Positions 6,116 through 52,323 are shown, counted from the stretch's first letter. The stretch: DNA of 64,000 bases from Candidatus Poribacteria bacterium (GCA_022394775.1 JAGFCB010000020.1:984-64983); one strand, 5' to 3'. The notes: generated by a model from the letters alone, not told the origin. Numbers and translations are program-made.

Positions 6116-6178
6116 CGCGAATTCCTGACGATTGTTCTACCCCCCAACTTGAATACCTTTTTACATTGCCTGTTTTTC

Positions 6179-6207
6179 TTGACGAAGCGTCATTTTTGTG
6201 ATAATAT
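6179..6207 (+). promoter_or_regulatory. sigma70-like promoter (TTGACG-17-TAATAT) for the AT-rich cassette
   Basis: TTGACG 6179-6184, 17-nt spacer ending tgtga, TAATAT 6202-6207. Confidence 0.45.
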
Positions 6208-6292
6208 TCTTATACAAATTTTGTGAAAACGCTTGGTAAAATATGTGAAAAAATTACAATTACATCAAAATTAACCAAATTGGAGATTTGTC

Positions 6293-6520
6293 ATGGAACA
6301 AGAACGAATGTCCATAGAAGAAATGATACTGAAATATCCCGATCAGTGGTTGTTTATTACTGATTGTGAGATCAGCGAAAATACTGAGTTAATATCAGGT
6401 GTTGTATTAGTGAACAGCCCATCCAAAGATGAGGTTTATAAAGCCCTTACAAATCATAAGGGTGAATCCGCAATACGGTATACTGGAAAACTTCCAGAAG
6501 GGATGGCTTACTTACTCTAA
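6293..6520 (+). CDS. small cytoplasmic protein (DUF5678-like pattern), first gene of a two-gene cassette
   Basis: 75 aa. GGAG SD. Its stop overlaps the next start (TAATG at 6518-6522). The region is visibly more AT-rich than its flanks. Confidence 0.6.
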   Translation: MEQERMSIEEMILKYPDQWLFITDCEISENTELISGVVLVNSPSKDEVYKALTNHKGESAIRYTGKLPEGMAYLL

Positions 6521-6945
6521 TGGGACGTACGCGTTTTGATGGCAATGGTTCATCTATAAAACTAAACTTGCTGGTAAGCAGTATGGATTTAACTTCCCAT
6601 ACGAATGTTTTAGTGGCATTGGATACTGGAGCTTCTGTTACATCTATACCAACGTATGTTGCTAAAGCTTTAGGTTATGACCTTTCCGAGAATTGTGAGG
6701 AAATTGAAATTATTACTGGTAGCGGAACAAAAAAAGTAAAAGTAATCCACGTAAGCAAATTAACTGCTATAGGTGAGAGTCGTGAGAATATTAAAGTTTG
6801 GTGTTGTGACCTTCCGCTTGACTTAGATGTTTTAGGAGTATTAGGATACAATTTCTTGGAACACTTTGATATTAATATTTCATTTTCCTCCAATACGATT
6901 GAGATAAAGCCAATAGAAAAGAAGGAACAAGTGCTGGCACCTTAA
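6520..6945 (+). CDS. retropepsin-like (clan AA) aspartic protease
   Basis: 141 aa. Active-site-like motif VALDTGAS (D-T-G-A). Size and layout fit single-domain bacterial retropepsin-like proteases. Confidence 0.7.
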   Translation: MGRTRFDGNGSSIKLNLLVSSMDLTSHTNVLVALDTGASVTSIPTYVAKALGYDLSENCEEIEIITGSGTKKVKVIHVSKLTAIGESRENIKVWCCDLPLDLDVLGVLGYNFLEHFDINISFSSNTIEIKPIEKKEQVLAP

Positions 6946-7072
6946 TAGTCGAGGGGCAACACTTGCTCTTCTAAATCCCAACATTCCCTGGTTATCCATT
7001 CAGTACTTTTTCTTATTTCTTTATTTTTTAAACCCTTTCCCTCAAAAATCCCCTCTTATAACTACAGTCTAA

Positions 7073-10000
7073 TTGGCAAATCTAATTGGGAATTTGTTTA
7101 TGCAATACGATTCATCAACTTACACAGACCTGACAGACGAAGAACTCATTCGACGCGTGCAGGACGGGGATGAGGCGGCATTCGCCCAACTCGCAGCCCG
7201 CCATAGTTCCCGAATTTGGCAACTCGTTGTTTTCTACTCTCGCCAAACCCGCGATGCCGAAGAGATCTTTCAAGATATTTGGGTCGCCGTCTGGGAAAAC
7301 ATCGGCGGCTTACGCGAAGTCAGTAGTTTCGGGGCCTGGCTCCGAAAGATAGCCTGGACGACTTGCAGAAGATACTACGCTGCCAAGTCGCATACCAGAG
7401 GCGAAATCCTCCAGAGCGCGGAGAAACTCGCTGAGACGATTGATCGGGATGTGCTTGCCCGTTTTCGAGAGATGGAACTTCGAACGGCTGTGACGGAGGC
7501 GGTGCATCAACTACCGGAGCGGGTCCGCACCGTTGCGGTGCTGTACTACTTAGAGTTATGGACTGTCAAGGAAATTGCAGAGGAACTCGGCTTAGCGGTC
7601 GGTACCGTCAAGACGAGGCTCAGCCAAATTCGAGGGCTTTTGCGTGAAGAGTTTGGCGTTGAAGAAATTAAGAGGGAAACAACTATGGCGCGTGAAAAAG
7701 AAGCATCCAAGACATCACAGAAGGTAATTAAGATCTTCGGTGTAGGCGACGCGGGTGGCAACATTATCAAGTGGATGATCGCATCCGGTTTGGAAGGCGT
7801 GGAATTTTACGCTGTAAATACGGATTTAGAAGCACTCCGCACATGTGATGGTGCAACACAGGTGCAGATCGGTGCTGAAACCACACAAGGATTTGGCGCA
7901 GATGCGAATCCAGAGATCGGTAGAAGGGCAGCTGAAGAAGATTTGGAAAGCCTCAATGCCGCCATTGCAGACGCAAGCCTTGTTTTCGTTGCGGCTGGTA
8001 TGGGCGGTGGAACGGGGACAGGTGCTGCGCCCCTGATTGCTGCTCTTGCGCAAGAACACGGGGCTTTGACAATAGGTGTTGTGACACGTCCGTTTGATTT
8101 TGAGGGACAACGCCGCGCCGAACAGGCAGAATACGGACGCTATGAACTTCAAGGGAACACAGATGCCGTTATTGTCGTGCCGAATCAGCGGCTTCTCGAT
8201 ACTGTCGATGTAGAACCCTCACCGAGTGAAGCGTTCCGTATGAGCGACGAGACTGTGCTACTCGCCGTTAAAAGTGTCGCCGATATTATCACAGAGTCAG
8301 GCGAAATTAGCCTTGACTTCGCCGATGTAGCAAGCATCATGCAGGATGCTGGCACGGTGTTCATGGGCACAGGACGAGCAAGTGGTGAAAATCGGGCGCG
8401 GGTCGCTGCAGAAAGTGCTGTCGCCTCTCCACTCTTAGATGGGGAAAAAATGGAAAATGCTCCTGGGTTGATTGTCAACATCAGTGCCCCGTCGGATTTC
8501 ATGATGCATGAATTGAATGAGGCGATGGAGGTCATCAAAGATGCCTCGCCTGAAGCGCAGATTATCTTTGGATTGGTCTATAGGGACGATGATCCTGATG
8601 AAGATAAGGTTGATGCGACGATCCTTGCGACGGGGATTGAGACACAAAGCGAACCTACCACACCACTCTCCACTCGGCAGGATGGCACCTCGCCTGAAGG
8701 CGGTACCTATATTCCTTCTAAAACCGGTTCCGAATTTGTGCATCTACACAACCATAGCGAATATAGCATGCTTGACGGTGCGTGTCGTATTCCAGAGATG
8801 GTGGATTGGGCAGTCGAAAATAGCGTTCCTGCTGTCGCACTCACCGATCACGGCAACATGTTCGGGGCATGGGAACTCTACAACAAGGCAACAGAGGCAG
8901 GCGTCAACCCGGTCATCGGTTGTGAGGTGTATGTCGCACCTGATAGCCGCAAGACCCGTGCACAGAACCAGAACGGTCCTTATCATCTCACATTGCTCGC
9001 CGAGGATGCAACGGGTTACCAAAATCTTTTGGAATTGGTATCGCTCGGATATACGGAAGGCTTGAATCGCAGGCCGCGCATTGACATGGAAACCTTGCGT
9101 GAACACCGTGAAGGGATCATCGCGTTGACGGGGTGTATCCAAGCACAAGTGCCGCAACTCCTCTGCGCAAATCGGCGAGACGAAGCCGTTCAAAACTTCA
9201 AAACGCTGATGGAGATAATGGGGAAACACAACCTCTACGTTGAGATACAGAATCACTACATTGACAAGGAACTTCAGGCGTACCCAGTGATGGTGGAGTT
9301 GGCGAAAGAATTCAATCTTCCGCTTGTTGGGACAAACGATTGCCACTATCTCCACAAATCCGACCACGAGATGCACGATGTCCTTCTCTGTATTCAGACA
9401 AAAAGGACTGTCAACGACCAAGAGCGTCCCCGGTTTGACAACCACTTCTACTTTAAAAATGCTGACGAAATGCGCGAGGCACTTAAGGATTATCCACCGG
9501 AAGCCATTACCAACACGCTTGAAATTGCGAACCGGTGCAACCTTAGACTCGACTATCGACAAGACTCAATGCCGAAGTTTGAAATCCCCGAAGGGCACAC
9601 ACACGACAGTTATCTCAGAGAACTGTGTTATCAAGGCTTACGTAAAAAGTATGGTGAACTCTCCGAACCGATCCAACAGCGGATTGATTATGAACTGGAT
9701 ATAATCAAACAGTCAGGATACGCCAACTATTTCCTGATTGTCGAAGATTATGTCAACTATGCGCACAAACAGGGATACCCACTATCAGCCCGCGGTTCCG
9801 CCGCCAGTAGTCTGGTGCTGTATGCCCTTGATGTGATTGGTTTCAATCCGATGGATCACGGTTGTATGTTTGAGCGGTTCCTGAACCTTGAACGTCTCGC
9901 GCCACCCGATATTGATATCGATTTCGCCGACCGCGCCCGTGAATCTGTAATTGCGTACTTAACGAAAAAATACGGTGCGGATTCTGTCGGCAAAGTTGCT

Positions 10001-11374
10001 ACTTTTGCTACTTTGGGTGCGAAAGCCGCTATCAAAGATGTGGGACGCGCCCTTGAAGTGCCGCTTGAAAAAGTCGAAAAGTTGACACAGTTAATTCCGT
10101 CTTTCCCCGGAATCACGTTAGATGAGGTCTTGGAAAAAGTGCCTGAATTCCAGACACTTGCGGAACTCCCTGAGAATCGGGAATTGATTGAGATTAGCAA
10201 AGCGGTGGAGGGTATGAAACGGCACGTCTCCTGTCATGCCTCTGCGATTGTCGTCACGGAGGGACCGTTAACAAATTACGTCCCGTTGTTCAAGGATAAA
10301 CACGATCAAGTGGCAACGCAGTTTGAAGGAAAAATCGTTGAAGATGTCGGTATCATCAAATTCGATTCCCTCGGTTTACGGAGTCTTAGTGAGACATACG
10401 ACTGCCTTCAAATGATTAAGGCGAACCACGGGGTTGAGATCAAGTTAGAGGATATCCCGTTTGACGACAAGAAGACCTATTCACTGGTCAACAATGGATT
10501 TATCGCGGGTTTGTTCCAGTTAGAAGGCTCTTCTGGTATGTATCGGGTTGTTACCGAACTCAAACCAGATAACTTTGAAGAATTCTCCGCTATTCCCGCA
10601 CTCTATCGCCCGGGTCCGATAGAAAATGGGGACATGCAACGGTACATAGATCGGAAGAATGGGCTACAACCCGTAGAATCGTATATCCACCCGTCGGTTA
10701 AGGATGTACTCAAAGGCACGTACGGTGTATGCATCTATCAGGAACAGGTGATGCAGATCGCACACGATGTGGCTGGCTTTACACTCGCTGAGGCGGATAT
10801 ATTGCGCAGCGCGATGGGCAAAAAGGACCAAATACTGCTCAAAGAACAGCGTGAGAAATTCGTTGAAGGTGCAATGAAAAAAGGGCGCGCTAAAGGCGAA
10901 GCTGAAGCGATATTTGACTGGCTCGAACCTGCCGGTAGCTATGCCTTTAACAAGTCACATACGGTCGCTTACTCGATGTTAGCGTACCGTATGGCGTACC
11001 TGAAAACCCACTATCCGCACGAGTTCATGGCGGCAATGATGACCGGCGAGTCGGGCGATTCAATGAAAATTGCCCGATACCGAGAAGAGTGTAGAAAACT
11101 CGCTGATTTTCTGGGTGTAGAAATTAACCTGCTTCCGTTGAATGTGAACAGTAGTGAGAAAGGCTATACGGTGGAAGGCAATGCCATCCGTTCTGGGTTT
11201 GTCACTGTAAAAGGAATGTCGAATGAATTGATAGATCAGATTTTAGCAAAGAGAACATCTGATGGCGCGTTTGACTCGTTAGAAGATTTCGGGACGCGGG
11301 TAGACGATGTGGATGGACAAGTTATTGACACCCTCATTAGGGGCGGTGCATTTGATGCCATTTCCGGGGCATAG
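7073..11374 (+). CDS. single ORF fusing an ECF sigma-70 family factor, an FtsZ GTPase core and DNA polymerase III alpha (DnaE, lacking the C-terminal third)
   Basis: 1433 codons with no in-frame stop (TTG at 7073; first ATG at 7100). The domain calls below rest on strong signature motifs. The stop is TAG at 11372-11374. Confidence 0.7.
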   Translation: MANLIGNLFMQYDSSTYTDLTDEELIRRVQDGDEAAFAQLAARHSSRIWQLVVFYSRQTRDAEEIFQDIWVAVWENIGGLREVSSFGAWLRKIAWTTCRRYYAAKSHTRGEILQSAEKLAETIDRDVLARFREMELRTAVTEAVHQLPERVRTVAVLYYLELWTVKEIAEELGLAVGTVKTRLSQIRGLLREEFGVEEIKRETTMAREKEASKTSQKVIKIFGVGDAGGNIIKWMIASGLEGVEFYAVNTDLEALRTCDGATQVQIGAETTQGFGADANPEIGRRAAEEDLESLNAAIADASLVFVAAGMGGGTGTGAAPLIAALAQEHGALTIGVVTRPFDFEGQRRAEQAEYGRYELQGNTDAVIVVPNQRLLDTVDVEPSPSEAFRMSDETVLLAVKSVADIITESGEISLDFADVASIMQDAGTVFMGTGRASGENRARVAAESAVASPLLDGEKMENAPGLIVNISAPSDFMMHELNEAMEVIKDASPEAQIIFGLVYRDDDPDEDKVDATILATGIETQSEPTTPLSTRQDGTSPEGGTYIPSKTGSEFVHLHNHSEYSMLDGACRIPEMVDWAVENSVPAVALTDHGNMFGAWELYNKATEAGVNPVIGCEVYVAPDSRKTRAQNQNGPYHLTLLAEDATGYQNLLELVSLGYTEGLNRRPRIDMETLREHREGIIALTGCIQAQVPQLLCANRRDEAVQNFKTLMEIMGKHNLYVEIQNHYIDKELQAYPVMVELAKEFNLPLVGTNDCHYLHKSDHEMHDVLLCIQTKRTVNDQERPRFDNHFYFKNADEMREALKDYPPEAITNTLEIANRCNLRLDYRQDSMPKFEIPEGHTHDSYLRELCYQGLRKKYGELSEPIQQRIDYELDIIKQSGYANYFLIVEDYVNYAHKQGYPLSARGSAASSLVLYALDVIGFNPMDHGCMFERFLNLERLAPPDIDIDFADRARESVIAYLTKKYGADSVGKVATFATLGAKAAIKDVGRALEVPLEKVEKLTQLIPSFPGITLDEVLEKVPEFQTLAELPENRELIEISKAVEGMKRHVSCHASAIVVTEGPLTNYVPLFKDKHDQVATQFEGKIVEDVGIIKFDSLGLRSLSETYDCLQMIKANHGVEIKLEDIPFDDKKTYSLVNNGFIAGLFQLEGSSGMYRVVTELKPDNFEEFSAIPALYRPGPIENGDMQRYIDRKNGLQPVESYIHPSVKDVLKGTYGVCIYQEQVMQIAHDVAGFTLAEADILRSAMGKKDQILLKEQREKFVEGAMKKGRAKGEAEAIFDWLEPAGSYAFNKSHTVAYSMLAYRMAYLKTHYPHEFMAAMMTGESGDSMKIARYREECRKLADFLGVEINLLPLNVNSSEKGYTVEGNAIRSGFVTVKGMSNELIDQILAKRTSDGAFDSLEDFGTRVDDVDGQVIDTLIRGGAFDAISGA
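7100..7669 (+). other. ECF sigma factor module (regions 2 and 4)
   Basis: DEELIRRVQDGDEAAFAQL, FQDIWVAVWENIGGLRE and FGAWLRKIAWTTCRRYY (region 2). LPERVRTVAVLYYLELWTVKEIAEELGLAVGTVKTRLSQIRGLLREEF (region 4 HTH). Confidence 0.85.
7685..8641 (+). other. FtsZ module (GTPase plus C-terminal core domain, no C-terminal anchoring peptide)
   Basis: The in-frame ATG at 7685 is preceded by AAGAGGG (7670-7676). IKIFGVGDAGGN, GFGADANPEIGRRAAEE, tubulin signature GMGGGTGTGAAP, VVTRPFDFEG, T7-like SLDFADV. Collinear with E. coli FtsZ along the whole core. Confidence 0.85.
8735..11371 (+). other. DnaE module: PHP domain, palm/thumb/fingers and HhH; ends before the clamp-binding/OB/tau-binding regions
   Basis: FVHLHNHSEYSMLDG (PHP), GSAASSLVLYAL, catalytic PPDIDIDF and KFDSLGL, HASAIVV, FNKSHTVAYS. 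Terminal sequence is LIRGGAFDAISGA-stop. Confidence 0.85.
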
Positions 11375-11393: not shown

Positions 11394-11420
11394 GCTGGCG
11401 GGGTTTGCATCCCCGCCAAT
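11394..11420. terminator. GC-rich hairpin between convergent genes (related to REP family B)
   Basis: gctggcgggg-tttgca-tccccgccaa, located between the fusion-ORF stop (11374) and the convergent gene end (11451). Confidence 0.5.
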
Positions 11421-45033: not shown

Positions 45034-48000
45034 ATGAAAAAACGAACACTCGTTTGTTTTTTGATTTTTACATTGTGTGTTTTTTACACCGCAATACCGA
45101 ACACAGTTTTCGGGCAAGAAGAGGGAGTTGCTCTCGCTAACCAAGTTTTTGACGAGTATAGCGAGACGCTTCAGCGTGACGACGTTAAATCATTGCTTCC
45201 AAAGATCTTAGACGGTCTTGCGGGGGCAGGTGATGATCAAGATATTCCAGCTCTCGTTGATACGGCTATCGCTTTGATTAACGCCGGTCAAGGGGCAGCC
45301 CTACAAGGACTCGCTGCTGGACAGGGTGTTACGCTAACAGATGACCATATAAAACTTCTTGCAGATCCGGAGGTCCAAACGTTACTTACGGCTGAAACCA
45401 CTAAGGAGCTGCTCGGGCTTAAGGGTGCGGAACTTCAGGCAGGACTCGCAGAGCTCTTGAGGTTAGCTAATGAACCGGTCGAAGAGGTAACACCGCCGCC
45501 AGAAGAGGAAGTGACACCGCCGCCAGAAGAGGTAATACCCCCGACAATTGCTCTCGCTAACCAAGTTTTTGACGAGCACAGCCAGACACTTCAGCGTGAC
45601 GACGTTAAATCACTGCTTCCACAGATCTTGGACGGTCTTCAGCAGGCAGGTGACGATGTCGATATCCCAGGTCTGATTGATACGGCTATCGCTTTGATTA
45701 ATGCCGGTCAAGGGGCAACCCTACAGGGACTCGCTGCTGGACAGGGTGTTCCGCTAACAGATGATCATATAACACTTCTTGCAGATCCGGATGTCCAAAT
45801 GTTACTTACGGCTGAAACCACTAAGGAACTGCTCGGGCTTAAGGGTGCGGAACTTCAGGTAGGACTCGCAGAGCTCTTGAGGTTAGCTAATGAACCGGTT
45901 GAAGAGGTAACACCTCCGCCAGAAGAGGAAGTAACACCTCCGCCAGAAGAGGAGGTAACACCTCCGCCAGAAGTGGTACCGCCTCCACCAGAGGATAAAG
46001 CACCTCCCTTTGAGCCTGCAACGCCTACAAGAGATTACCTGTTAGGTAAGTCTCGACTTGGTGGTTTGTCCCTAAACGGTGCTTCTGGCAGAAGGTTCGT
46101 TGAAGACTTTATTGCTGCACTGGCACCTGCTGGAATATCACTTGAAGCAGAGGTCGTAGTGGATGCTGTCCTTGATGCAGTGCCAACAGGGTTTTTGCCC
46201 AAAAAGCAGATTCGCAATCTTTTACTGTCAAAGCGTCTCAGTGTTTTCCCTCAGGAAGAGGATCAGTTAGATGCCGAGAACTTCGGAAATGCTATAATGC
46301 CGAATTTCACCGATTTTCTCTACTCAGATTTTGGCGACGCACCAAACCAAAAATACCTGACAAGCGATGGTCTGCACGTTTATACGCGTGTTCCAGCAAA
46401 GGTTGCGGGTGTCGAGTTTAGTCTCTCAGATGGTAGAACGATTCCCGGCACAGAGTTTAAAATGGCTGAACTCGGAGCCGATACCATCGATTATACCTTC
46501 CGCTTAGAGGAAACGCTTGCTGCCACTAACTTACCCGCATGGCCAGACTTAGATGCTCAGTTGTTCTCCGGTGTTACGCTCCGATATTCAAATACCGGTT
46601 CTATGAATGATGACTATATTGGCGTTACTATGCAACCGGTACCTGGAGAAAATGGAGTCGTCTGGGAAGCAAAATTGGGTATACCTGCTGGTCGTAGCAC
46701 GTATTACTATTTTGAAGTAATGCTTGCTGAACCGTTGACGTTCACCGCACTGGACCGGGACGCTATTGCCGCCCTCGATCCGACCACCGCTACGTTAGCA
46801 GATGTCCTCAATCCGGCGAATCTACATCAAATTACGATTGAAGGTTGGGCAATGCCTGATCCGCGTAACCTCCAATTAGCGGACCGCGGTATTGTTGAGG
46901 CGTTATTCACACCTAACTTGGTAGATGCGTTTAGGGAAATATTGGATTCGCCGCAAACCCTTCAGTTCATCGCGGGTCAGGCTGATTTAAATAACATTGC
47001 TACACCAAAGCAGTTGCGTAGAATCCAGACCATATTGCTCCGTAATACGAACGCGCTGACAACTCAATTTGAGGAAGCGTTTGATCCGATGTTGGCTTCT
47101 GTTTTCACCGTGCCACGTGTTGATCTGGAAACCCAATCACTCTGGACTGCCCACATTGATAATATTGCTGATGGCAACTATCAGTTGAAAGCGGATGTTC
47201 TTGCTGATGACGGAACCGTTCTTGATCGGATGCAAGAGAATATCACTGTTGACACGAGCGCACCGGAAGCAAATATCGGCATTAGTCCAGGTGAGGACGC
47301 AAATGCTACTGGCTATATGAACGATGATGGAATTTATGTTGCTACTGCACCTACTGTTGGCACCGCCGCAACGCTCAAGATTATGGGTATGCCGACGGTT
47401 CCTGGTGAGATCGCTCCAGGTAGAGGTTATCTTCTCTATCAATTGATCGCACTGAACGAAGATGGGACACCTTACCTCGGAGACCCATCGATTCAAAAAC
47501 CCAACACTTGGATGCCGTTGACTGTTGACTCCACTATGTTGGTATCCAATATTTGGGACGCAGTTCGAGGGGCGATTGCAGAGGGACGATTGAACGCACC
47601 AACTGATCCAACCCTTCAGACAGTCTTGGCATTGCCGTTAGATGGAATATTGGGTATTCTGAATGCCGGTTTAATACAGCAATTCGCAGATCCGGTCCTA
47701 AAAGATTTGGAACCTTTTATAGGGTTTAGCAGTTTAAATGATAGCCAGGCGCAATTGATAGTTGAAGCACTCGGTGCTACAATAGACATCATTGACCATC
47801 TTGTACCTGTAACCTTTGATCCATCTGGGCACGTAGTGATGCCTATCCAGGGTGCGCAAATGCCGCTTATAACTGGTGATTACGGCATCCGCGCAATGGG
47901 ACTGGATAGTCTCTTCAATGTTGGTGCTTACGCCGCACCTACCCATCTCAGGATCGTTGAGCCAAGTGCCAATACTGATCGCGCAAGCATTGTGAATGCT

Positions 48001-51000
48001 AATATCGGCGACTTCAACAATGATGGTATGGTTGATCCTGAATACGAAACCGGAATTATCTACGCAAATACCAAAAATGTCATGATAACCGGGACTGTAA
48101 CCCAAAAACACCCGATCCAATCTGTTGTGATCCAATACAAGGACGCAAGTGACAATTGGGTAAACATCGACGAAGCTGCTGTCATGGGTGCAGACTTTGA
48201 ATACACTTGGAACGTTGATAATTTTGACGCATTAATCAGTGCAGGCGACACTGTCATGGTGCGCGCCAAGGCAACCAATGCGCTTCAACTTCCAGACCTT
48301 GAACCCATGCCGTTCTCAATCAAGTTGGATCCTGGTATCTATCCGCCTAAAGTGTTGGATATTGTAGCTGATGAGGGCGAGAGTCAAAACGCAGATAGTG
48401 GTGCCCCACAAGGCATGGTCACTATTACCGCATCTACGGAACCACTGACCGGTCCAAAGACTGTTGCGGTTCGGTTTGAAGCCAAACGCCCAACCGATGA
48501 AACGTGGATCCCACTCGGCACAGATAACGCTGTTGCGAGTGCTGTTGGCGCAGCTGTTGATGCTGCTCTTGAAGGTGCTACCGCTGCTCCGATCAGTGTG
48601 GATGGTAAGCAAACATGGTCAATAGAAGTAAATACAGCAGAGGACTTGGAAGACACTATCACGAAGGACAGCCCCGGTGCACGGGACAAATCCAAGGATG
48701 ATAACCAGTATACAATTCGTGCCTTTGCTGTTGACGCAAGCGGAAAAGAGTGGCCCTCTGATAAGACTACGATGCTCTCGGTTGACAACGTTGACGATGT
48801 CGCACCCCTTGCACCTACAAGTATTAGTGTGACGGATGTTGATGGCGTTGATGTCGTCTTTGAAGATGAAGATGGTAATTACACTGTTGGTGGACTCGTC
48901 GATAAATATGACGATGATGTCCCATCGCCAGAGGCTACATTTACGATTAAACCCGAAGCAGAGCGGAAGACTTACACATCGGTCAAATTTACAATGACGG
49001 ATGCTGCAGGTACTGATAGTGAATTAAAAGTAGCCGAAACCGCTGAAGGCGGCGTTTTCACCGTAAAAGTTGATGTCGGCACACTTGCTGATGGTACTTA
49101 TACGTTCCAAGCACTCGCCTATGATGAGGTTCCCAACGTGGAAGCCGATACGGACGACTCCAAAGTCTTAGTGACGGTTAAAAACACTTTCCGACCGGAA
49201 CCGAAAGTTTTGGCTCTCGCTGTGGACCCCGAAAGCATCACACAAACAAACCCGGATAGTGGTGCACCGCAGGGGACCATCACACTCCACGCCTATTCGC
49301 ACGAGATCAGTTCTCCGGCGACGAAGGGTGTCCGTCTTGTAGTCAAACGTCCTGGTGATGAAGAGTGGATAGATGCTGGCGAGGCTACTGAAAGTACGCC
49401 GACTACCGAAATTTCGGACACAACCCTTACAGATTTTGTTGGGGACTTAGCCAATGCTGCAACGGATACAGCAGTTGTACCGATCAATCGAACCTATCAA
49501 ATGTGGGCGATTGAAGTAGATACAACCCAGCTTGAAGATACCATTACCGCTGAGAACCCTGCAGCAGCACGCGACGCGTCTAAAGACAAAAACCAATATA
49601 CGGTTCGTGCAATCCCAATTGAAGAAGCAGAGGATTTTGACGATCCAGAGGCATCTCCAAATGCTACGGCCATGTTCTCAGTTGACAATGATGACGATGT
49701 CGAGCCATTAGGTCCGACGAACATTGTCGCTGTTGCGGACGTTGCTGGTCCGATTGAAGCAAACGAAGATAATATTTACACTGTCGGTGGGATTGTTGAT
49801 GATACAGTTCCTTCACCGATAGCAACATTTACAATTGAGCCGACTGCTGATCCTGCTACCTACGCATCCGTCAACTTGGTGCAAACCGCAGGGGAGGTTT
49901 CCGAAACTGTTGCCGAAGGCGAAGCCGGTGTGCTTGACATTACAATTGATGTTGGCGCGCTTGAAAATGGAACTTATATGTTCCACGCTTTAGCCGTTGA
50001 TAAGTCCGGTAACGTGCAAACCGATGAGTCTCCGATGATAACGGTGCATGTCCTGAACTTCCGAGTCTCTGATGTTGCTGACTTAGCGGTCAGCGCTGTT
50101 GATGGTACGGACGTTGCGGAATCACCCGCAGAACCGATTCCACTTCGCAATTCAGTCACGGTGAGTTTTACGGTTGCAAACGGTTCATTAGCAGCTGAAG
50201 AACTTAGCGGCACAGTAAACGGAGATGGTGTACCGAGCGAAAGTGCTGAAGATCCGGAAAATACCTTCTCACTGATGGTAGAGGTCGGAGCACTTGCAGA
50301 CGGAGTCTATACACCCGACGCTTTGGTCACAAAACGGAACGGTTCGGTCGCTTTCCCAATAACAACAGTTAATGTGGATAACACCGGTCCAATGGTTACT
50401 ATCGAATCTCCTACGGATGGTGAAGCGGTAGATAGCCTGCCGACTGTACACGCAAGTTATCACGATGGTGCGGGTGCGGGTGTTGATGGTACCACTGGAA
50501 GCCTTGATTTGGCACGTCTCCAGCCACCTGACGCTGTTGAAGTGGTTGTTGACCAAGCGGAACTTGAAAAAGATGCTGAAGCCTTGGTCTATACCCGTAG
50601 TGAGCAACTTGCCGGTGGCGCGTATCGTGTAACTGTTGAAGTTGCTGATATCCTCGGTAACGTCGGTACGAGTATGCGGGAATTCACTGTCAATGGGACG
50701 CTCCCAACTGTTGCGATTCATTCGCCGGTTTCAGGGCAAACCTTTGAGCACGGCAAACCGCCGATCAGTGGTGAATTTTCGGGTGCTGGCACTATTGAAA
50801 TTACTACGTTTACTATCAACGATGTTGATGCAACACCAGAGGTAGACGGGAACCAATTTTCCTATACACCTGGGGAAGCATTGAGCGATGGTGATTACAA
50901 GGTCGTTGTCGCAGTCACTGACGGTGATGGTAATGTCGCACAGGCATCCAGTATCTTCACGGTAGATATGCCGAGAGACACAACACCACCAGTGATCTCC

Positions 51001-52323
51001 GCAGCTGCACCTAATGGAGTCATTAGGGATGCAGACCACGCTAAAGTCGGGTCGGCAAAGATCTCAGCGGTCGTGACTGACGAGCAATCGTCCATTTTAT
51101 CTGTGAAATACAGCATAAATGGTGGTCAACTCCGTTCCATATCCAACTTGAATGTTGCTGGTGGGAAGATCGAAGCACCGATAGACTTTGAAGCACACGG
51201 AGCAGGTCTGTACAACGTACGACTCGTTGCAACCAGCCAAGGTGGTACCACGGAATACACGTGGAGTTTCACACTCATTGTTGATAATATCGCACCTACG
51301 ATCACCTCGATTAGCCCGTCTGGAACGATCCGTGGCGGACTCCCGGTTATCTCCGCGAGTGCCAACGACGATTCAGGCGTTTCTAAAATAACAATCACTG
51401 TTATGGATAGTACGGGTAAAGAGGTGAAGGGTAAGACCCAAGATGATGGTGAAAGCGATGTTGAAGGTATCACCCGTTTGGATTTCAATCCTGAAGCACC
51501 GCTTGATGAAGGTGTTTACACGATTGAGGTTCGCGCAACGGATCCATACGAGAACTCCGCTTCAGCTAAAGGGACTTTCACTATTGACTTTGATACCGCT
51601 GCACCGGTCATCACAATGGCATCGCCACAACAGGATGCACGCATTGTGCTGAAAGCAGGGGATAAGGCGCCGACAGTTTCGATTGCCTATGCCGATGCTG
51701 AATCCGGTGTAAACGTTGAGTCTATTGTCTTGACACTGGAAGGCCCTGTATTCAAGTCTACCCCGAGTGGTGATAAACCTAACCTCAAGCCTGAGCAGAA
51801 GACGGCAAGCCAGGTTATGTATACACTGCCTTTCAATACAGTAGTAGATAAACCTGAAAGATGGGTCGGAGAATATGTGGTTAGACTTGAGGTGGCTGAC
51901 AACGCGCACTTAGAGGGCAATGTCTCTGAAAAGAGTAAAGGTGCCCGTAAGGCGAATGCGACAGTCCATCAGTTTAGCTTTACTATTGAAAGTGCCGAAG
52001 GTCCAATACTGGCAGCACGTCCGATTAACTACCCCAACCCGTTCAAGGATAACACGCGGATCTCCTTTACATTGGCTCGAGAATCTACGGTCAGTATTGT
52101 CATCTATGACAGCACGCTCCGTCCGGTTCGAGTGCTGATGGATAATGCGGTATTGCCAGCAGGCAATTATACCCGTAAGGAGGTTGGTTCGGATGCCTTC
52201 GGTTGGGATGGGAAATCGAGCAGTGGTGAAGATATGGCACGAGGTATCTACTTCTGCGAGATCATCGTAGCAGATGGTTTAGAACCCGAATATGCCATTC
52301 TCAAACTCGCACTGACGCGCTAA
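45034..52323 (+). CDS. giant secreted repeat protein: signal peptide, duplicated helical N-domains with PPPEEEVT linkers, many Ig-like domains, FlgD-Ig/T9SS-type C-terminal domain
   Basis: 2429 aa. GAGGAGG SD. Signal peptide MKKRTLVCFLIFTLCVFYTAIPNTVFGQ. Repeated domain boundaries VDNTGPMVTIESP, DTTPPVISAAAP, VDNIAPTITSISP, DTAAPVITMASP. C-terminus NYPNPFKDNTRISFTL...VSIVIYD...FGWDGKSSSGEDMARGIYFCEI. Confidence 0.9.
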   Translation: MKKRTLVCFLIFTLCVFYTAIPNTVFGQEEGVALANQVFDEYSETLQRDDVKSLLPKILDGLAGAGDDQDIPALVDTAIALINAGQGAALQGLAAGQGVTLTDDHIKLLADPEVQTLLTAETTKELLGLKGAELQAGLAELLRLANEPVEEVTPPPEEEVTPPPEEVIPPTIALANQVFDEHSQTLQRDDVKSLLPQILDGLQQAGDDVDIPGLIDTAIALINAGQGATLQGLAAGQGVPLTDDHITLLADPDVQMLLTAETTKELLGLKGAELQVGLAELLRLANEPVEEVTPPPEEEVTPPPEEEVTPPPEVVPPPPEDKAPPFEPATPTRDYLLGKSRLGGLSLNGASGRRFVEDFIAALAPAGISLEAEVVVDAVLDAVPTGFLPKKQIRNLLLSKRLSVFPQEEDQLDAENFGNAIMPNFTDFLYSDFGDAPNQKYLTSDGLHVYTRVPAKVAGVEFSLSDGRTIPGTEFKMAELGADTIDYTFRLEETLAATNLPAWPDLDAQLFSGVTLRYSNTGSMNDDYIGVTMQPVPGENGVVWEAKLGIPAGRSTYYYFEVMLAEPLTFTALDRDAIAALDPTTATLADVLNPANLHQITIEGWAMPDPRNLQLADRGIVEALFTPNLVDAFREILDSPQTLQFIAGQADLNNIATPKQLRRIQTILLRNTNALTTQFEEAFDPMLASVFTVPRVDLETQSLWTAHIDNIADGNYQLKADVLADDGTVLDRMQENITVDTSAPEANIGISPGEDANATGYMNDDGIYVATAPTVGTAATLKIMGMPTVPGEIAPGRGYLLYQLIALNEDGTPYLGDPSIQKPNTWMPLTVDSTMLVSNIWDAVRGAIAEGRLNAPTDPTLQTVLALPLDGILGILNAGLIQQFADPVLKDLEPFIGFSSLNDSQAQLIVEALGATIDIIDHLVPVTFDPSGHVVMPIQGAQMPLITGDYGIRAMGLDSLFNVGAYAAPTHLRIVEPSANTDRASIVNANIGDFNNDGMVDPEYETGIIYANTKNVMITGTVTQKHPIQSVVIQYKDASDNWVNIDEAAVMGADFEYTWNVDNFDALISAGDTVMVRAKATNALQLPDLEPMPFSIKLDPGIYPPKVLDIVADEGESQNADSGAPQGMVTITASTEPLTGPKTVAVRFEAKRPTDETWIPLGTDNAVASAVGAAVDAALEGATAAPISVDGKQTWSIEVNTAEDLEDTITKDSPGARDKSKDDNQYTIRAFAVDASGKEWPSDKTTMLSVDNVDDVAPLAPTSISVTDVDGVDVVFEDEDGNYTVGGLVDKYDDDVPSPEATFTIKPEAERKTYTSVKFTMTDAAGTDSELKVAETAEGGVFTVKVDVGTLADGTYTFQALAYDEVPNVEADTDDSKVLVTVKNTFRPEPKVLALAVDPESITQTNPDSGAPQGTITLHAYSHEISSPATKGVRLVVKRPGDEEWIDAGEATESTPTTEISDTTLTDFVGDLANAATDTAVVPINRTYQMWAIEVDTTQLEDTITAENPAAARDASKDKNQYTVRAIPIEEAEDFDDPEASPNATAMFSVDNDDDVEPLGPTNIVAVADVAGPIEANEDNIYTVGGIVDDTVPSPIATFTIEPTADPATYASVNLVQTAGEVSETVAEGEAGVLDITIDVGALENGTYMFHALAVDKSGNVQTDESPMITVHVLNFRVSDVADLAVSAVDGTDVAESPAEPIPLRNSVTVSFTVANGSLAAEELSGTVNGDGVPSESAEDPENTFSLMVEVGALADGVYTPDALVTKRNGSVAFPITTVNVDNTGPMVTIESPTDGEAVDSLPTVHASYHDGAGAGVDGTTGSLDLARLQPPDAVEVVVDQAELEKDAEALVYTRSEQLAGGAYRVTVEVADILGNVGTSMREFTVNGTLPTVAIHSPVSGQTFEHGKPPISGEFSGAGTIEITTFTINDVDATPEVDGNQFSYTPGEALSDGDYKVVVAVTDGDGNVAQASSIFTVDMPRDTTPPVISAAAPNGVIRDADHAKVGSAKISAVVTDEQSSILSVKYSINGGQLRSISNLNVAGGKIEAPIDFEAHGAGLYNVRLVATSQGGTTEYTWSFTLIVDNIAPTITSISPSGTIRGGLPVISASANDDSGVSKITITVMDSTGKEVKGKTQDDGESDVEGITRLDFNPEAPLDEGVYTIEVRATDPYENSASAKGTFTIDFDTAAPVITMASPQQDARIVLKAGDKAPTVSIAYADAESGVNVESIVLTLEGPVFKSTPSGDKPNLKPEQKTASQVMYTLPFNTVVDKPERWVGEYVVRLEVADNAHLEGNVSEKSKGARKANATVHQFSFTIESAEGPILAARPINYPNPFKDNTRISFTLARESTVSIVIYDSTLRPVRVLMDNAVLPAGNYTRKEVGSDAFGWDGKSSSGEDMARGIYFCEIIVADGLEPEYAILKLALTR
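45128..45967 (+). repeat. tandem duplication, 2 x 420 bp, roughly 90 percent identical by eye (coding)
   Basis: Unit 1 starts ttgctctcgctaaccaagtttttgacgag at 45128. The same string recurs at 45548. Each unit ends in 24-nt PPPEEEVT microrepeats. Confidence 0.9.

Follow-up and report, generated by a model that had tools for sequence, protein, structure and literature searches.

Several groups of extracytoplasmic function (ECF) sigma factors carry a C-terminal extension fused to the sigma core; among those described are ECF41 with a SnoaL-like domain, ECF42 with TPR, ECF57 with WD40, and ECF238 (CorE), and the extensions described there measure 120–400 aa (PMC8999054). In the 64,000-nucleotide stretch of DNA analyzed here (the window; Candidatus Poribacteria bacterium, GCA_022394775.1 JAGFCB010000020.1:984-64983), a single gene on the plus strand, at 7103..11374, encodes an ECF sigma factor, a copy of the division protein FtsZ (FtsZ2), and a truncated copy of the replicative polymerase subunit DnaE (DnaE′), all in one reading frame. 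Poribacteria are uncultured sponge-symbiont bacteria. On balance, the product is probably an ECF sigma factor whose C-terminal extension, built from FtsZ and DnaE paralogs, is regulatory; we infer for it the mechanism set out below.

As in the extension-bearing ECF sigma factors, the sigma2–sigma4 core is complete, the in-frame extension is large, no anti-sigma gene is adjacent, and a promoter-like block lies upstream; as in ECF57, close paralogs in the same genomes carry WD40 extensions (PMC8999054). However, the extension here comprises approximately 1230 aa, far beyond the 120–400 aa given in that source, and it consists of Tubulin/FtsZ_C and PHP/DNA_pol3_alpha/finger/HHH_6 domains, with a putative internal translation start in addition. 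It matches none of the described types, namely SnoaL-like, TPR, WD40, Cys-rich, and fused anti-sigma or transmembrane extensions, and FtsZ, tubulin, and DnaE are unmentioned in the ECF classification papers PMC7826278 and PMC7671368. A preliminary description of this DNA had held the fusion to be undescribed, and no description of the architecture was found in the literature searched; a sponge metatranscriptome paper mentions FtsZ for cyanobacteria only. When the sigma4–FtsZ2–PHP combination was scored against 1.84 billion cluster representatives, it occurred among the 150 best hits only in four clusters with the sequence and architecture of this locus itself (P0241, P0243, P0245, and P0248), and those of the other multi-stretch hits that were scanned with Pfam proved to be tandem FtsZ–FtsZ proteins. 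The locus is therefore rated as new in the domain content of its extension, which is unprecedented, while an ECF sigma factor with an extension as such is already known. To specialists in sigma factors, cell division, or replication, such a fusion would come as a surprise.

Domain organization of the fusion gene

The preliminary description had reported one stop-free frame encoding, in order, an ECF sigma factor, FtsZ, a Pro/Ser/Thr (P/S/T) linker, and DnaE. Both the frame and the order hold: from TTG 7073 to TAG 11372–11374 (7073..11374, plus strand, 1433 codons), no in-frame stop occurs, the quoted motifs are all present, and the profile scans proposed at that time recover the expected sigma, FtsZ/tubulin, PHP, and DNA_pol3_alpha domains in the expected order. 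The start was placed too far upstream. The conserved start is ATG 7103, present in all orthologues and matched by the public gene calls of relatives, which begin at the equivalent Met; the first 10 codons of the earlier frame (TTG 7073 and the 30 bases from it) belong to a conserved 5′ untranslated region (5′UTR). The gene is divided as follows:

7103..11374, plus strand: whole coding sequence, sigma–FtsZ2–DnaE′, 1423 codons plus TAG, from the conserved ATG
7103..7657, plus strand: ECF sigma factor module, sigma2 at about 7193–7390 and sigma4 at about 7487–7633 (Pfam, NCBIfam)
7658..7717, plus strand: junction 1, disordered linker with a putative internal ribosome-binding site and ATG (synonymous-codon conservation)
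7685..8641, plus strand: FtsZ2, paralog of the Poribacteria FtsZ core, GTPase domain and FtsZ_C (Pfam, NCBIfam, alignment)
8642..8737, plus strand: junction 2, P/S/T linker of about 30 aa running into SEFVHLHNHSEYS (alignment, AF2 pLDDT <30)
8738..11371, plus strand: DnaE′, comprising PHP, palm, thumb, fingers, and helix-hairpin-helix (HhH) of a DnaE1 paralog (Pfam, NCBIfam, alignment)

All eight Pfam domains score well over their gathering scores. Sigma70_r2 (residues 41–106) and Sigma70_r4_2 (139–187) form the sigma part, Tubulin (219–378) and FtsZ_C (427–523) the FtsZ part, and PHP (557–728), DNA_pol3_alpha (846–1101), DNA_pol3_finger (1110–1271), and HHH_6 (1351–1431) the DnaE part. Furthermore, each part exceeds the curated cut-off of an NCBIfam model: TIGR02937 for sigma70-ECF (87.6 against 42.9), TIGR00065 for the ftsZ equivalog (339.6 against 295.2), and NF004226 for Pol III alpha (1023.9 against 1002, with only model positions 7–884 of 1146 covered).

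Occurrence in Candidatus Poribacteria

A homologue scan with one genome per GTDB species returned 80 loci, labelled Candidatus Poribacteria or uncultured-bacterium metagenome-assembled genomes (MAGs). At 34 of the 80, the entire query is matched at 63–93% identity by a single tblastn high-scoring segment pair in one frame. In the 33 of these that lie whole within their contig, the frame begins at the conserved Met and reaches its first stop only past the DnaE part, so that the sibling-genome comparison proposed in the preliminary description yields 33 complete Poribacteria loci with a single frame through both junctions. Indels in the linkers are all in frame, for example five additional residues in L009 and a different linker length in the L025–L031 clade. 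A second gene occupies the remaining 46 loci; it encodes a full-length DnaE (about 1180 aa) that begins at its own Met (MATEF or MSSEF) and has a normal C-terminus. The FtsZ and DnaE parts, taken earlier for the cell's own FtsZ and replicative polymerase, are instead extra paralogs, and the same genomes have their canonical copies at other sites.

At 90% identity, the nearest relatives of the window fall in a cluster whose 36 members come from ENA, NCBI, and Logan assemblies. The window protein itself returned no record in an exact look-up, but near-identical relatives are on record. The fusion gene is genuine and vertically inherited and, in the searches made, is confined to Candidatus Poribacteria. 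Its proteins bear the public labels "DNA polymerase III subunit alpha", "cell division protein FtsZ", or "hypothetical protein"; these names may distort tallies of replication and division genes for these genomes.

A longer variant is seen at L011:10210-11229 in the closed genome OZ244821. The DnaE′ stop is gone there and the frame runs about 335 residues further ("...ARIMNSSCGCSDNTP..."), giving an open reading frame (ORF) of 1743 aa; the extra part has no Pfam match and resembles read-through into an inserted lipoprotein-like gene.

The sigma module and its paralogs

The sigma part contains only the sigma2 and sigma4 domains and exceeds the family profile cut-off, which places it among the ECF (group 4) sigma factors, and the frame continues for 1230 aa beyond sigma4. 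Residues 12–183 are helical in the AF2 model. Between species pairs of three-part genes (Nei–Gojobori), the ratio of nonsynonymous to synonymous divergence (dN/dS) of the sigma part is 0.05–0.13, the lowest of the three parts. Down to 50% identity, the sigma paralog family contains only Poribacteria-type sequences; a gap follows, down to approximately 35%, where generic ECF sigma factors appear. Close sigma paralogs likewise read in frame into other domains: WD40 repeats, a second sigma factor, or DnaN.

These paralogs (loci L084:2853-4590 and L085:3838-8665; proteins P0131, P0133, P0136, P0139, P0154, P0158, P0161, and P0169) have as partners DnaN, the beta clamp, beside IS200/IS605 genes, as well as a second ECF sigma, WD40 propellers (919 aa), and unknown domains. 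Between their parts there is sometimes a leftover of the ftsZ2 or dnaE start ("GGIMSSEFV" and "MSPEFADLHNKS"). At L085:11698-12279, near the sigma paralog cluster, a 193-aa fragment of NAD-dependent DNA ligase (Nlig-Ia and adenylation domain) accompanies DDE transposase genes and is another stray piece of a replication gene.

The FtsZ2 module

Like canonical FtsZ, FtsZ2 scores over the TIGR00065 cut-off and possesses the GTPase and C-terminal domains, and both the G-box GMGGGTGTGAAP and the T7 loop SLDFADV are present in the window copy and kept in FtsZ2 of most species. Its core is 57–68% identical to canonical Poribacteria FtsZ (62–66% for the part at 7685..8641), and FtsZ2 derives from the Poribacteria ftsZ lineage as an old duplicate of the host gene. 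The canonical protein has about 430 aa, with a disordered linker of about 90 aa and the tail WEIPAFLRV, ending ...WEIPAFLRVQKRG, and exists separately (for example, P0084 and P0063). Unlike it, FtsZ2 is fused at both ends, lacks the long linker and the C-terminal tether peptide (FtsA/ZipA/SepF class), for which the 30-aa P/S/T linker is substituted, evolves faster, and has a degraded G-box in one clade. Its dN/dS is 0.15–0.26, and its identity between deep clades is 55%, compared with 84% for canonical FtsZ. FtsZ2 is nevertheless retained in nearly all lineages. The locus is not the division gene of the genome: the flanking genes encode transport proteins and a peptidase, and no division gene cluster surrounds it.

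The DnaE′ module

The truncated E. coli alpha constructs used for crystallization (PDB 2HNH and 2HQA; 910–917 residues) are the nearest counterpart of DnaE′, which shares with them the PHP domain, the palm with its catalytic Asp, the thumb, fingers, and HhH, and is slightly shorter, ending at the equivalent of E. coli residue 891. It aligns to residues 6–947 of Taq Pol III alpha and 5–891 of the E. coli protein and then ends. Of the DnaE claimed at first, the portion from PHP to HhH, about the first three-quarters of the polymerase, is present and nothing follows it; the internal beta-clamp motif, the OB fold, and the tau-binding domain are all missing. Compared with DnaE1, DnaE′ is a natural truncation that has no start codon of its own and carries FtsZ2 at its N-terminus. 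Going by known Pol III alpha, a core that lacks the clamp motif and the tau domain would be neither clamp-processive nor tau-coupled.

DnaE′ retains the three catalytic Asp residues of the palm (PPDIDIDF, KFD), whose columns are conserved in 33–34 of 34 relatives, together with the metal ligands of the PHP domain. Of 428 alignment columns that do not vary in canonical DnaE, 249 keep the same residue in all DnaE′ copies. Identity to the canonical DnaE copies of Poribacteria genomes is 74–81%. Within a genome, DnaE′ and canonical DnaE are 79% identical (L002 and L054) or 70.5% identical (L029 and L071); across the same genomes, the canonical copies L054 and L071 share 82.7% and the DnaE′ copies L002 and L029 share 71.6%. 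DnaE′ forms its own groups and does not nest with the canonical copy of the same genome. This pattern fits one old duplication with no recent gene conversion. Conversion with canonical dnaE as the means of keeping DnaE′ intact is rejected on the 70–79% same-genome identity and the separate grouping. Identity with DnaE2/ImuC is rejected as well (NF004225, 575.4 bits against a cut-off of 939), the nearest relative being the host DnaE1.

By the same measure as above, dN/dS is 0.04–0.14 in the PHP domain, 0.09–0.16 in the palm and fingers, and 0.10–0.37 in the C-terminal part, with synonymous divergence saturated in the deepest pairs (dS 1–2). In matched genome pairs, DnaE′ gives 0.10–0.13 and canonical DnaE 0.02–0.07. 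All three parts of the gene are under purifying selection across at least 34 species.

Junctions and the internal start

Around junction 1, the window reads AAG AGG GAA at 7670–7678, which takes the form AAGAGGGGA in most species, followed by an invariant ATG at 7685–7687. The linker is disordered (pLDDT <50 for residues 185–206 in the AF2 model), yet its peptide KRGxTM is nearly invariant; in the window the peptide is …EEFGVEEIKR/ETTMAR…, and translation from the internal ATG would give MAREKEAS. Synonymous-codon conservation over the 1423 codons reaches its maximum (z 3.1–3.4) at codons 187–195, which read GAA ATT AAG AGG GGA ACA ACT ATG in most species, with GAA for GGA in the window. Although only 9% of the Arg codons in these genes are AGG, fewer than for any other Arg codon, 33 of the 35 sequences have AGG at this place; AAG and GGA are minority codons as well, and the ATG is found in all 35. 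From this Shine–Dalgarno and start signature, FtsZ2–DnaE′ is probably also translated alone, so that the locus would make a sigma-less product beside the full-length protein.

At junction 2, where canonical dnaE would begin with MATEF or MSSEF, the sequence has TGSEF and no Met, in the peptide …YIPSKTGSEFVHLH…. None of the 34 orthologues has a start codon there, and the synonymous conservation profile contains no ribosome-binding-site or start signal at this point. Because junction 2 has no start codon, FtsZ2–DnaE′ at least is a true fusion.

The conserved signature at 7670–7687 is also an argument for an operon that has lost a stop codon, in which the sigma factor and FtsZ2–DnaE′, made from the internal start, would work separately and the full-length protein would be a tolerated by-product. 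Standalone sigma relatives end just past region 4, as in P0166 ("...EFGVDSE*"), the variant P0123 is frameshifted at the junction and would yield separate products, and a sigma-only derivative persists in L086 and L087. Such an operon is nevertheless considered rather unlikely. In orthologues that span about 55% FtsZ2 identity, 34 of them three-part and 16 two-part, sigma is never separated from FtsZ2 by a stop. The linker indels, of which at least three are independent, all preserve the frame; the close sigma paralogs, too, each run on into an extension; and the missing start codon at junction 2 ties the other two parts together.

The ancestral three-part form and its trimming

The FtsZ2-part search returned about 50 proteins of about 555 aa with sigma and FtsZ domains, which occupy the same syntenic position as the window gene. 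Behind the same linker they end in N-terminal remnants of DnaE (...TSEFVHLYNHSEV*, ...SKFVHFPNYSEYNMLNES*, and ...ASEFVHLHNHSEYSLLV*), and a PHP remnant of about 50 aa remains in P0017 and of about 170 aa in P0014. In L083, scraps of DnaE′ DNA lie beyond the stop codon. One clade of three-part genes lacks the HhH domain (about 1365 aa), and in P0243, FtsZ2 is deleted in frame, leaving sigma–DnaE′. At the same syntenic site, L086:5001-6087 and L087:5001-6087 hold sigma with 44 residues of FtsZ2, behind which lies a scrap of the DnaE′ finger domain in another frame; the contigs of both have high coverage (131x and 168x). Because the shorter forms at the same site carry DnaE remnants, the three-part form is ancestral: the last common ancestor of the sampled Poribacteria had the three-part gene, with the extension trimmed independently many times. 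The DnaE′ part, repeatedly deleted in this series, is dispensable.

Proposed function

ECF sigma factors without an anti-sigma factor often carry controlling C-terminal extensions (PMC8999054), and by this analogy FtsZ2 and DnaE′ may be read as a regulatory extension; the close sigma paralogs, all with in-frame extensions, and the lack of an adjacent anti-sigma gene support this. As in other anti-sigma-less ECF sigma factors, the extension would decide whether the sigma part engages RNA polymerase. FtsZ tolerates fusions at both ends and still co-assembles. By the likeliest route, the FtsZ2 module would join filaments, which may be homotypic or may also contain canonical FtsZ and free FtsZ2–DnaE′; sigma would be sequestered in these FtsZ-type filaments, and its availability would track the division or replication state. 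The sigma-less isoform could dilute the sigma-bearing one within the filaments. DnaE′, as a clamp-independent polymerase core, may bind primer ends or PHP partners and, where it is kept, add a contact with DNA or the replisome. Filament sequestration of sigma is the most economical mechanism that we infer.

Several observations weigh against a regulatory extension of this kind. In one clade of three-part genes (L025–L031; also P0241), the last Gly of GGGTGTG is lost (GT[V/A/C/S]), a loss counted in six relatives, and the first T7-loop Asp (D209) is replaced by Asn in 7 of 16 two-part proteins; this erosion weakens a model that needs dynamic GTP-dependent polymerization. DnaE′ has been lost many times and FtsZ2 in one lineage, so the extension is not essential for keeping the sigma gene. 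Together with the motif erosion in some clades, the repeated loss of DnaE′ suggests that enzymatic activity is not uniformly required. No regulon was found in the window and 1.26 Mb of fetched loci. The AF2 model of sigma–FtsZ2, from a shallow alignment of 14 sequences (pLDDT 62), places the disordered linkers and not the domain contacts. Finally, with the conserved internal start, the fusion could be incidental to an operon.

The preliminary description had foreseen physical coupling of transcription, divisome, and replisome, which is kept here as a hypothesis. An active full-length protein, if produced, would join a factor of transcription initiation covalently to a tubulin-like polymer and the core of a DNA polymerase; no such link was found described elsewhere. 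ECF signalling would then gain a new kind of sensor domain, one that is itself a paralog of a housekeeping machine, and a possible coupling of gene expression to division or replication in uncultured sponge symbionts would become open to concrete tests. For such tests, the naturally occurring deletions (three-part, sigma–FtsZ2, sigma–DnaE′, and sigma alone) already supply the constructs.

A wider proposal, which we think unlikely, is that Poribacteria possess a family of ECF sigma factors in which in-frame copies of the cell's replication and division proteins act as sensors (FtsZ and DnaE here, DnaN or DnaE remnants in the paralogs), either through co-assembly with the real machines, as a cell-cycle checkpoint with a transcriptional output, or as inhibitor decoys, with the sigma-less copies setting the stoichiometry. 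In a radical variant, the sigma-bound RNA polymerase may supply a primer at the conserved promoter, which the tethered, clamp-independent DnaE′ would extend.

In an integrated decoy or guard, the copies of FtsZ, DnaE, and, in the paralogs, DnaN would mimic the targets of phages or competitors, and inhibitor binding would free or activate sigma and start a response. The fusion of one sigma family to copies of three replication and division proteins would suit this, as would the fast gain and loss of partners and the relaxed evolution of FtsZ2 relative to the canonical gene, with enzymatic motifs eroded in some clades; DnaE′ is likewise relaxed, though its catalytic residues are kept. However, a pure decoy would not need the full catalytic apparatus that DnaE′ maintains at a dN/dS of about 0.1, and the neighbours (ABC transport, TatD, and M23 peptidase) form no defence-island context. 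Since there are no relatives in viral contigs and no match to a PADLOC defence family, an origin from phages or defence islands has no support, and the decoy is judged quite improbable.

A decaying relic, in which a segmental duplication joined the gene copies by accident and the functionless FtsZ2 and DnaE′ are heading for loss, would account for the repeated independent deletions (end points at 1430, 1365, ~600, 555, and 239 aa) and for the DnaE′ scraps past the stop in L083. It would predict dN/dS near 1 or stops in most carriers, and the opposite is observed: about 870 DnaE′ codons stay open across lineages at dS 1–2 with dN/dS of about 0.1, the canonical-invariant columns (249 of 428) and catalytic Asp residues persist, and FtsZ2 is kept almost throughout, so this explanation is highly improbable.

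That the fusion is an assembly or sequencing artifact (a chimeric contig, or an indel erasing stop codons) can be dismissed almost entirely: no support for it was found, and although the window itself is one unverified sequence, 33 other genomes, sequenced in different laboratories and by different technologies, have the same architecture at the corresponding syntenic site, among them closed long-read chromosomes (OZ, OX, and OY accessions), short-read MAGs of several studies, the single-cell amplified genome WGA-3G, and Logan read assemblies. Because 33 independent complete loci keep one frame across both junctions, an indel or chimeric join does not explain the gene; the T-run indel earlier suggested near the end of the sigma part is rejected, all relatives having the identical frame.

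Upstream region and neighbouring genes

Three features flank the coding sequence:

7023..7060, plus strand: conserved promoter-like block TTTTTTAAACC-N17-CCTCTT(T)ATA(AC), near-invariant in 38 aligned orthologous loci
7064..7102, plus strand: 5′UTR with two tandem TCTAATTGG(G/C) copies (7068–7077 and 7081–7090) and a GGGA ribosome-binding site
11397..11417, no strand assigned: GC-rich hairpin GGCGGGG-TTTGCAT-CCCCGCC between the convergent fusion and solute-binding-protein genes, read from the sequence

Across the orthologues, the block takes the form TTTTTTAAACC-N17-CCTCTTTATAAC, with the short pattern TAAACC-N17-CCTCTTTATA. It is kept even where the upstream neighbour differs, and it also stands 5′ of the paralogous sigma genes in L084 and L085. 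A regular expression for the block matched 41 times in the 1.26 Mb of fetched loci, 39 times upstream of sigma-family genes; the remaining two matches, in L002 and L003, lie on the minus strand downstream of the fusion gene. No further copy was found within the window, and a metagenome scan with the 16-base pattern gave chance matches only among the matches listed. In the promoter scan, the block does not match the sigma-70 consensus. The repeat of the 5′UTR has the consensus (A/C)A(A/G)TCTAATTGGG (7064–7090 in the window; the same place in L001–L034 and L081–L083), and its copy number varies by species from one to three.

Upstream of the fusion gene lie genes for TatD and an ABC permease, and downstream those for a convergent solute-binding protein, an M23 peptidase, CorC, PhyH, and a FAD oxidase; no anti-sigma gene adjoins it, the immediate neighbours being the permease and solute-binding-protein genes. 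The hairpin at 11397..11417 is, from its sequence, a possible bidirectional terminator; the consensus terminator scan did not call it.

In the window, a low-GC insertion of about 0.9 kb (6116–7000; 33–38% GC) separates the permease gene from the fusion gene. It encodes a 75-aa ORF (6293–6520) and a 141-aa retropepsin-like aspartyl protease (6520–6945; PF13975), the latter with a weak PADLOC match to PDC-M08B. The insertion is shared with L003 only, and at most other loci, those of the main clade, the permease gene is directly upstream. Elsewhere in the window, an ORF of 2429 aa occupies 45034–52323 on the plus strand.

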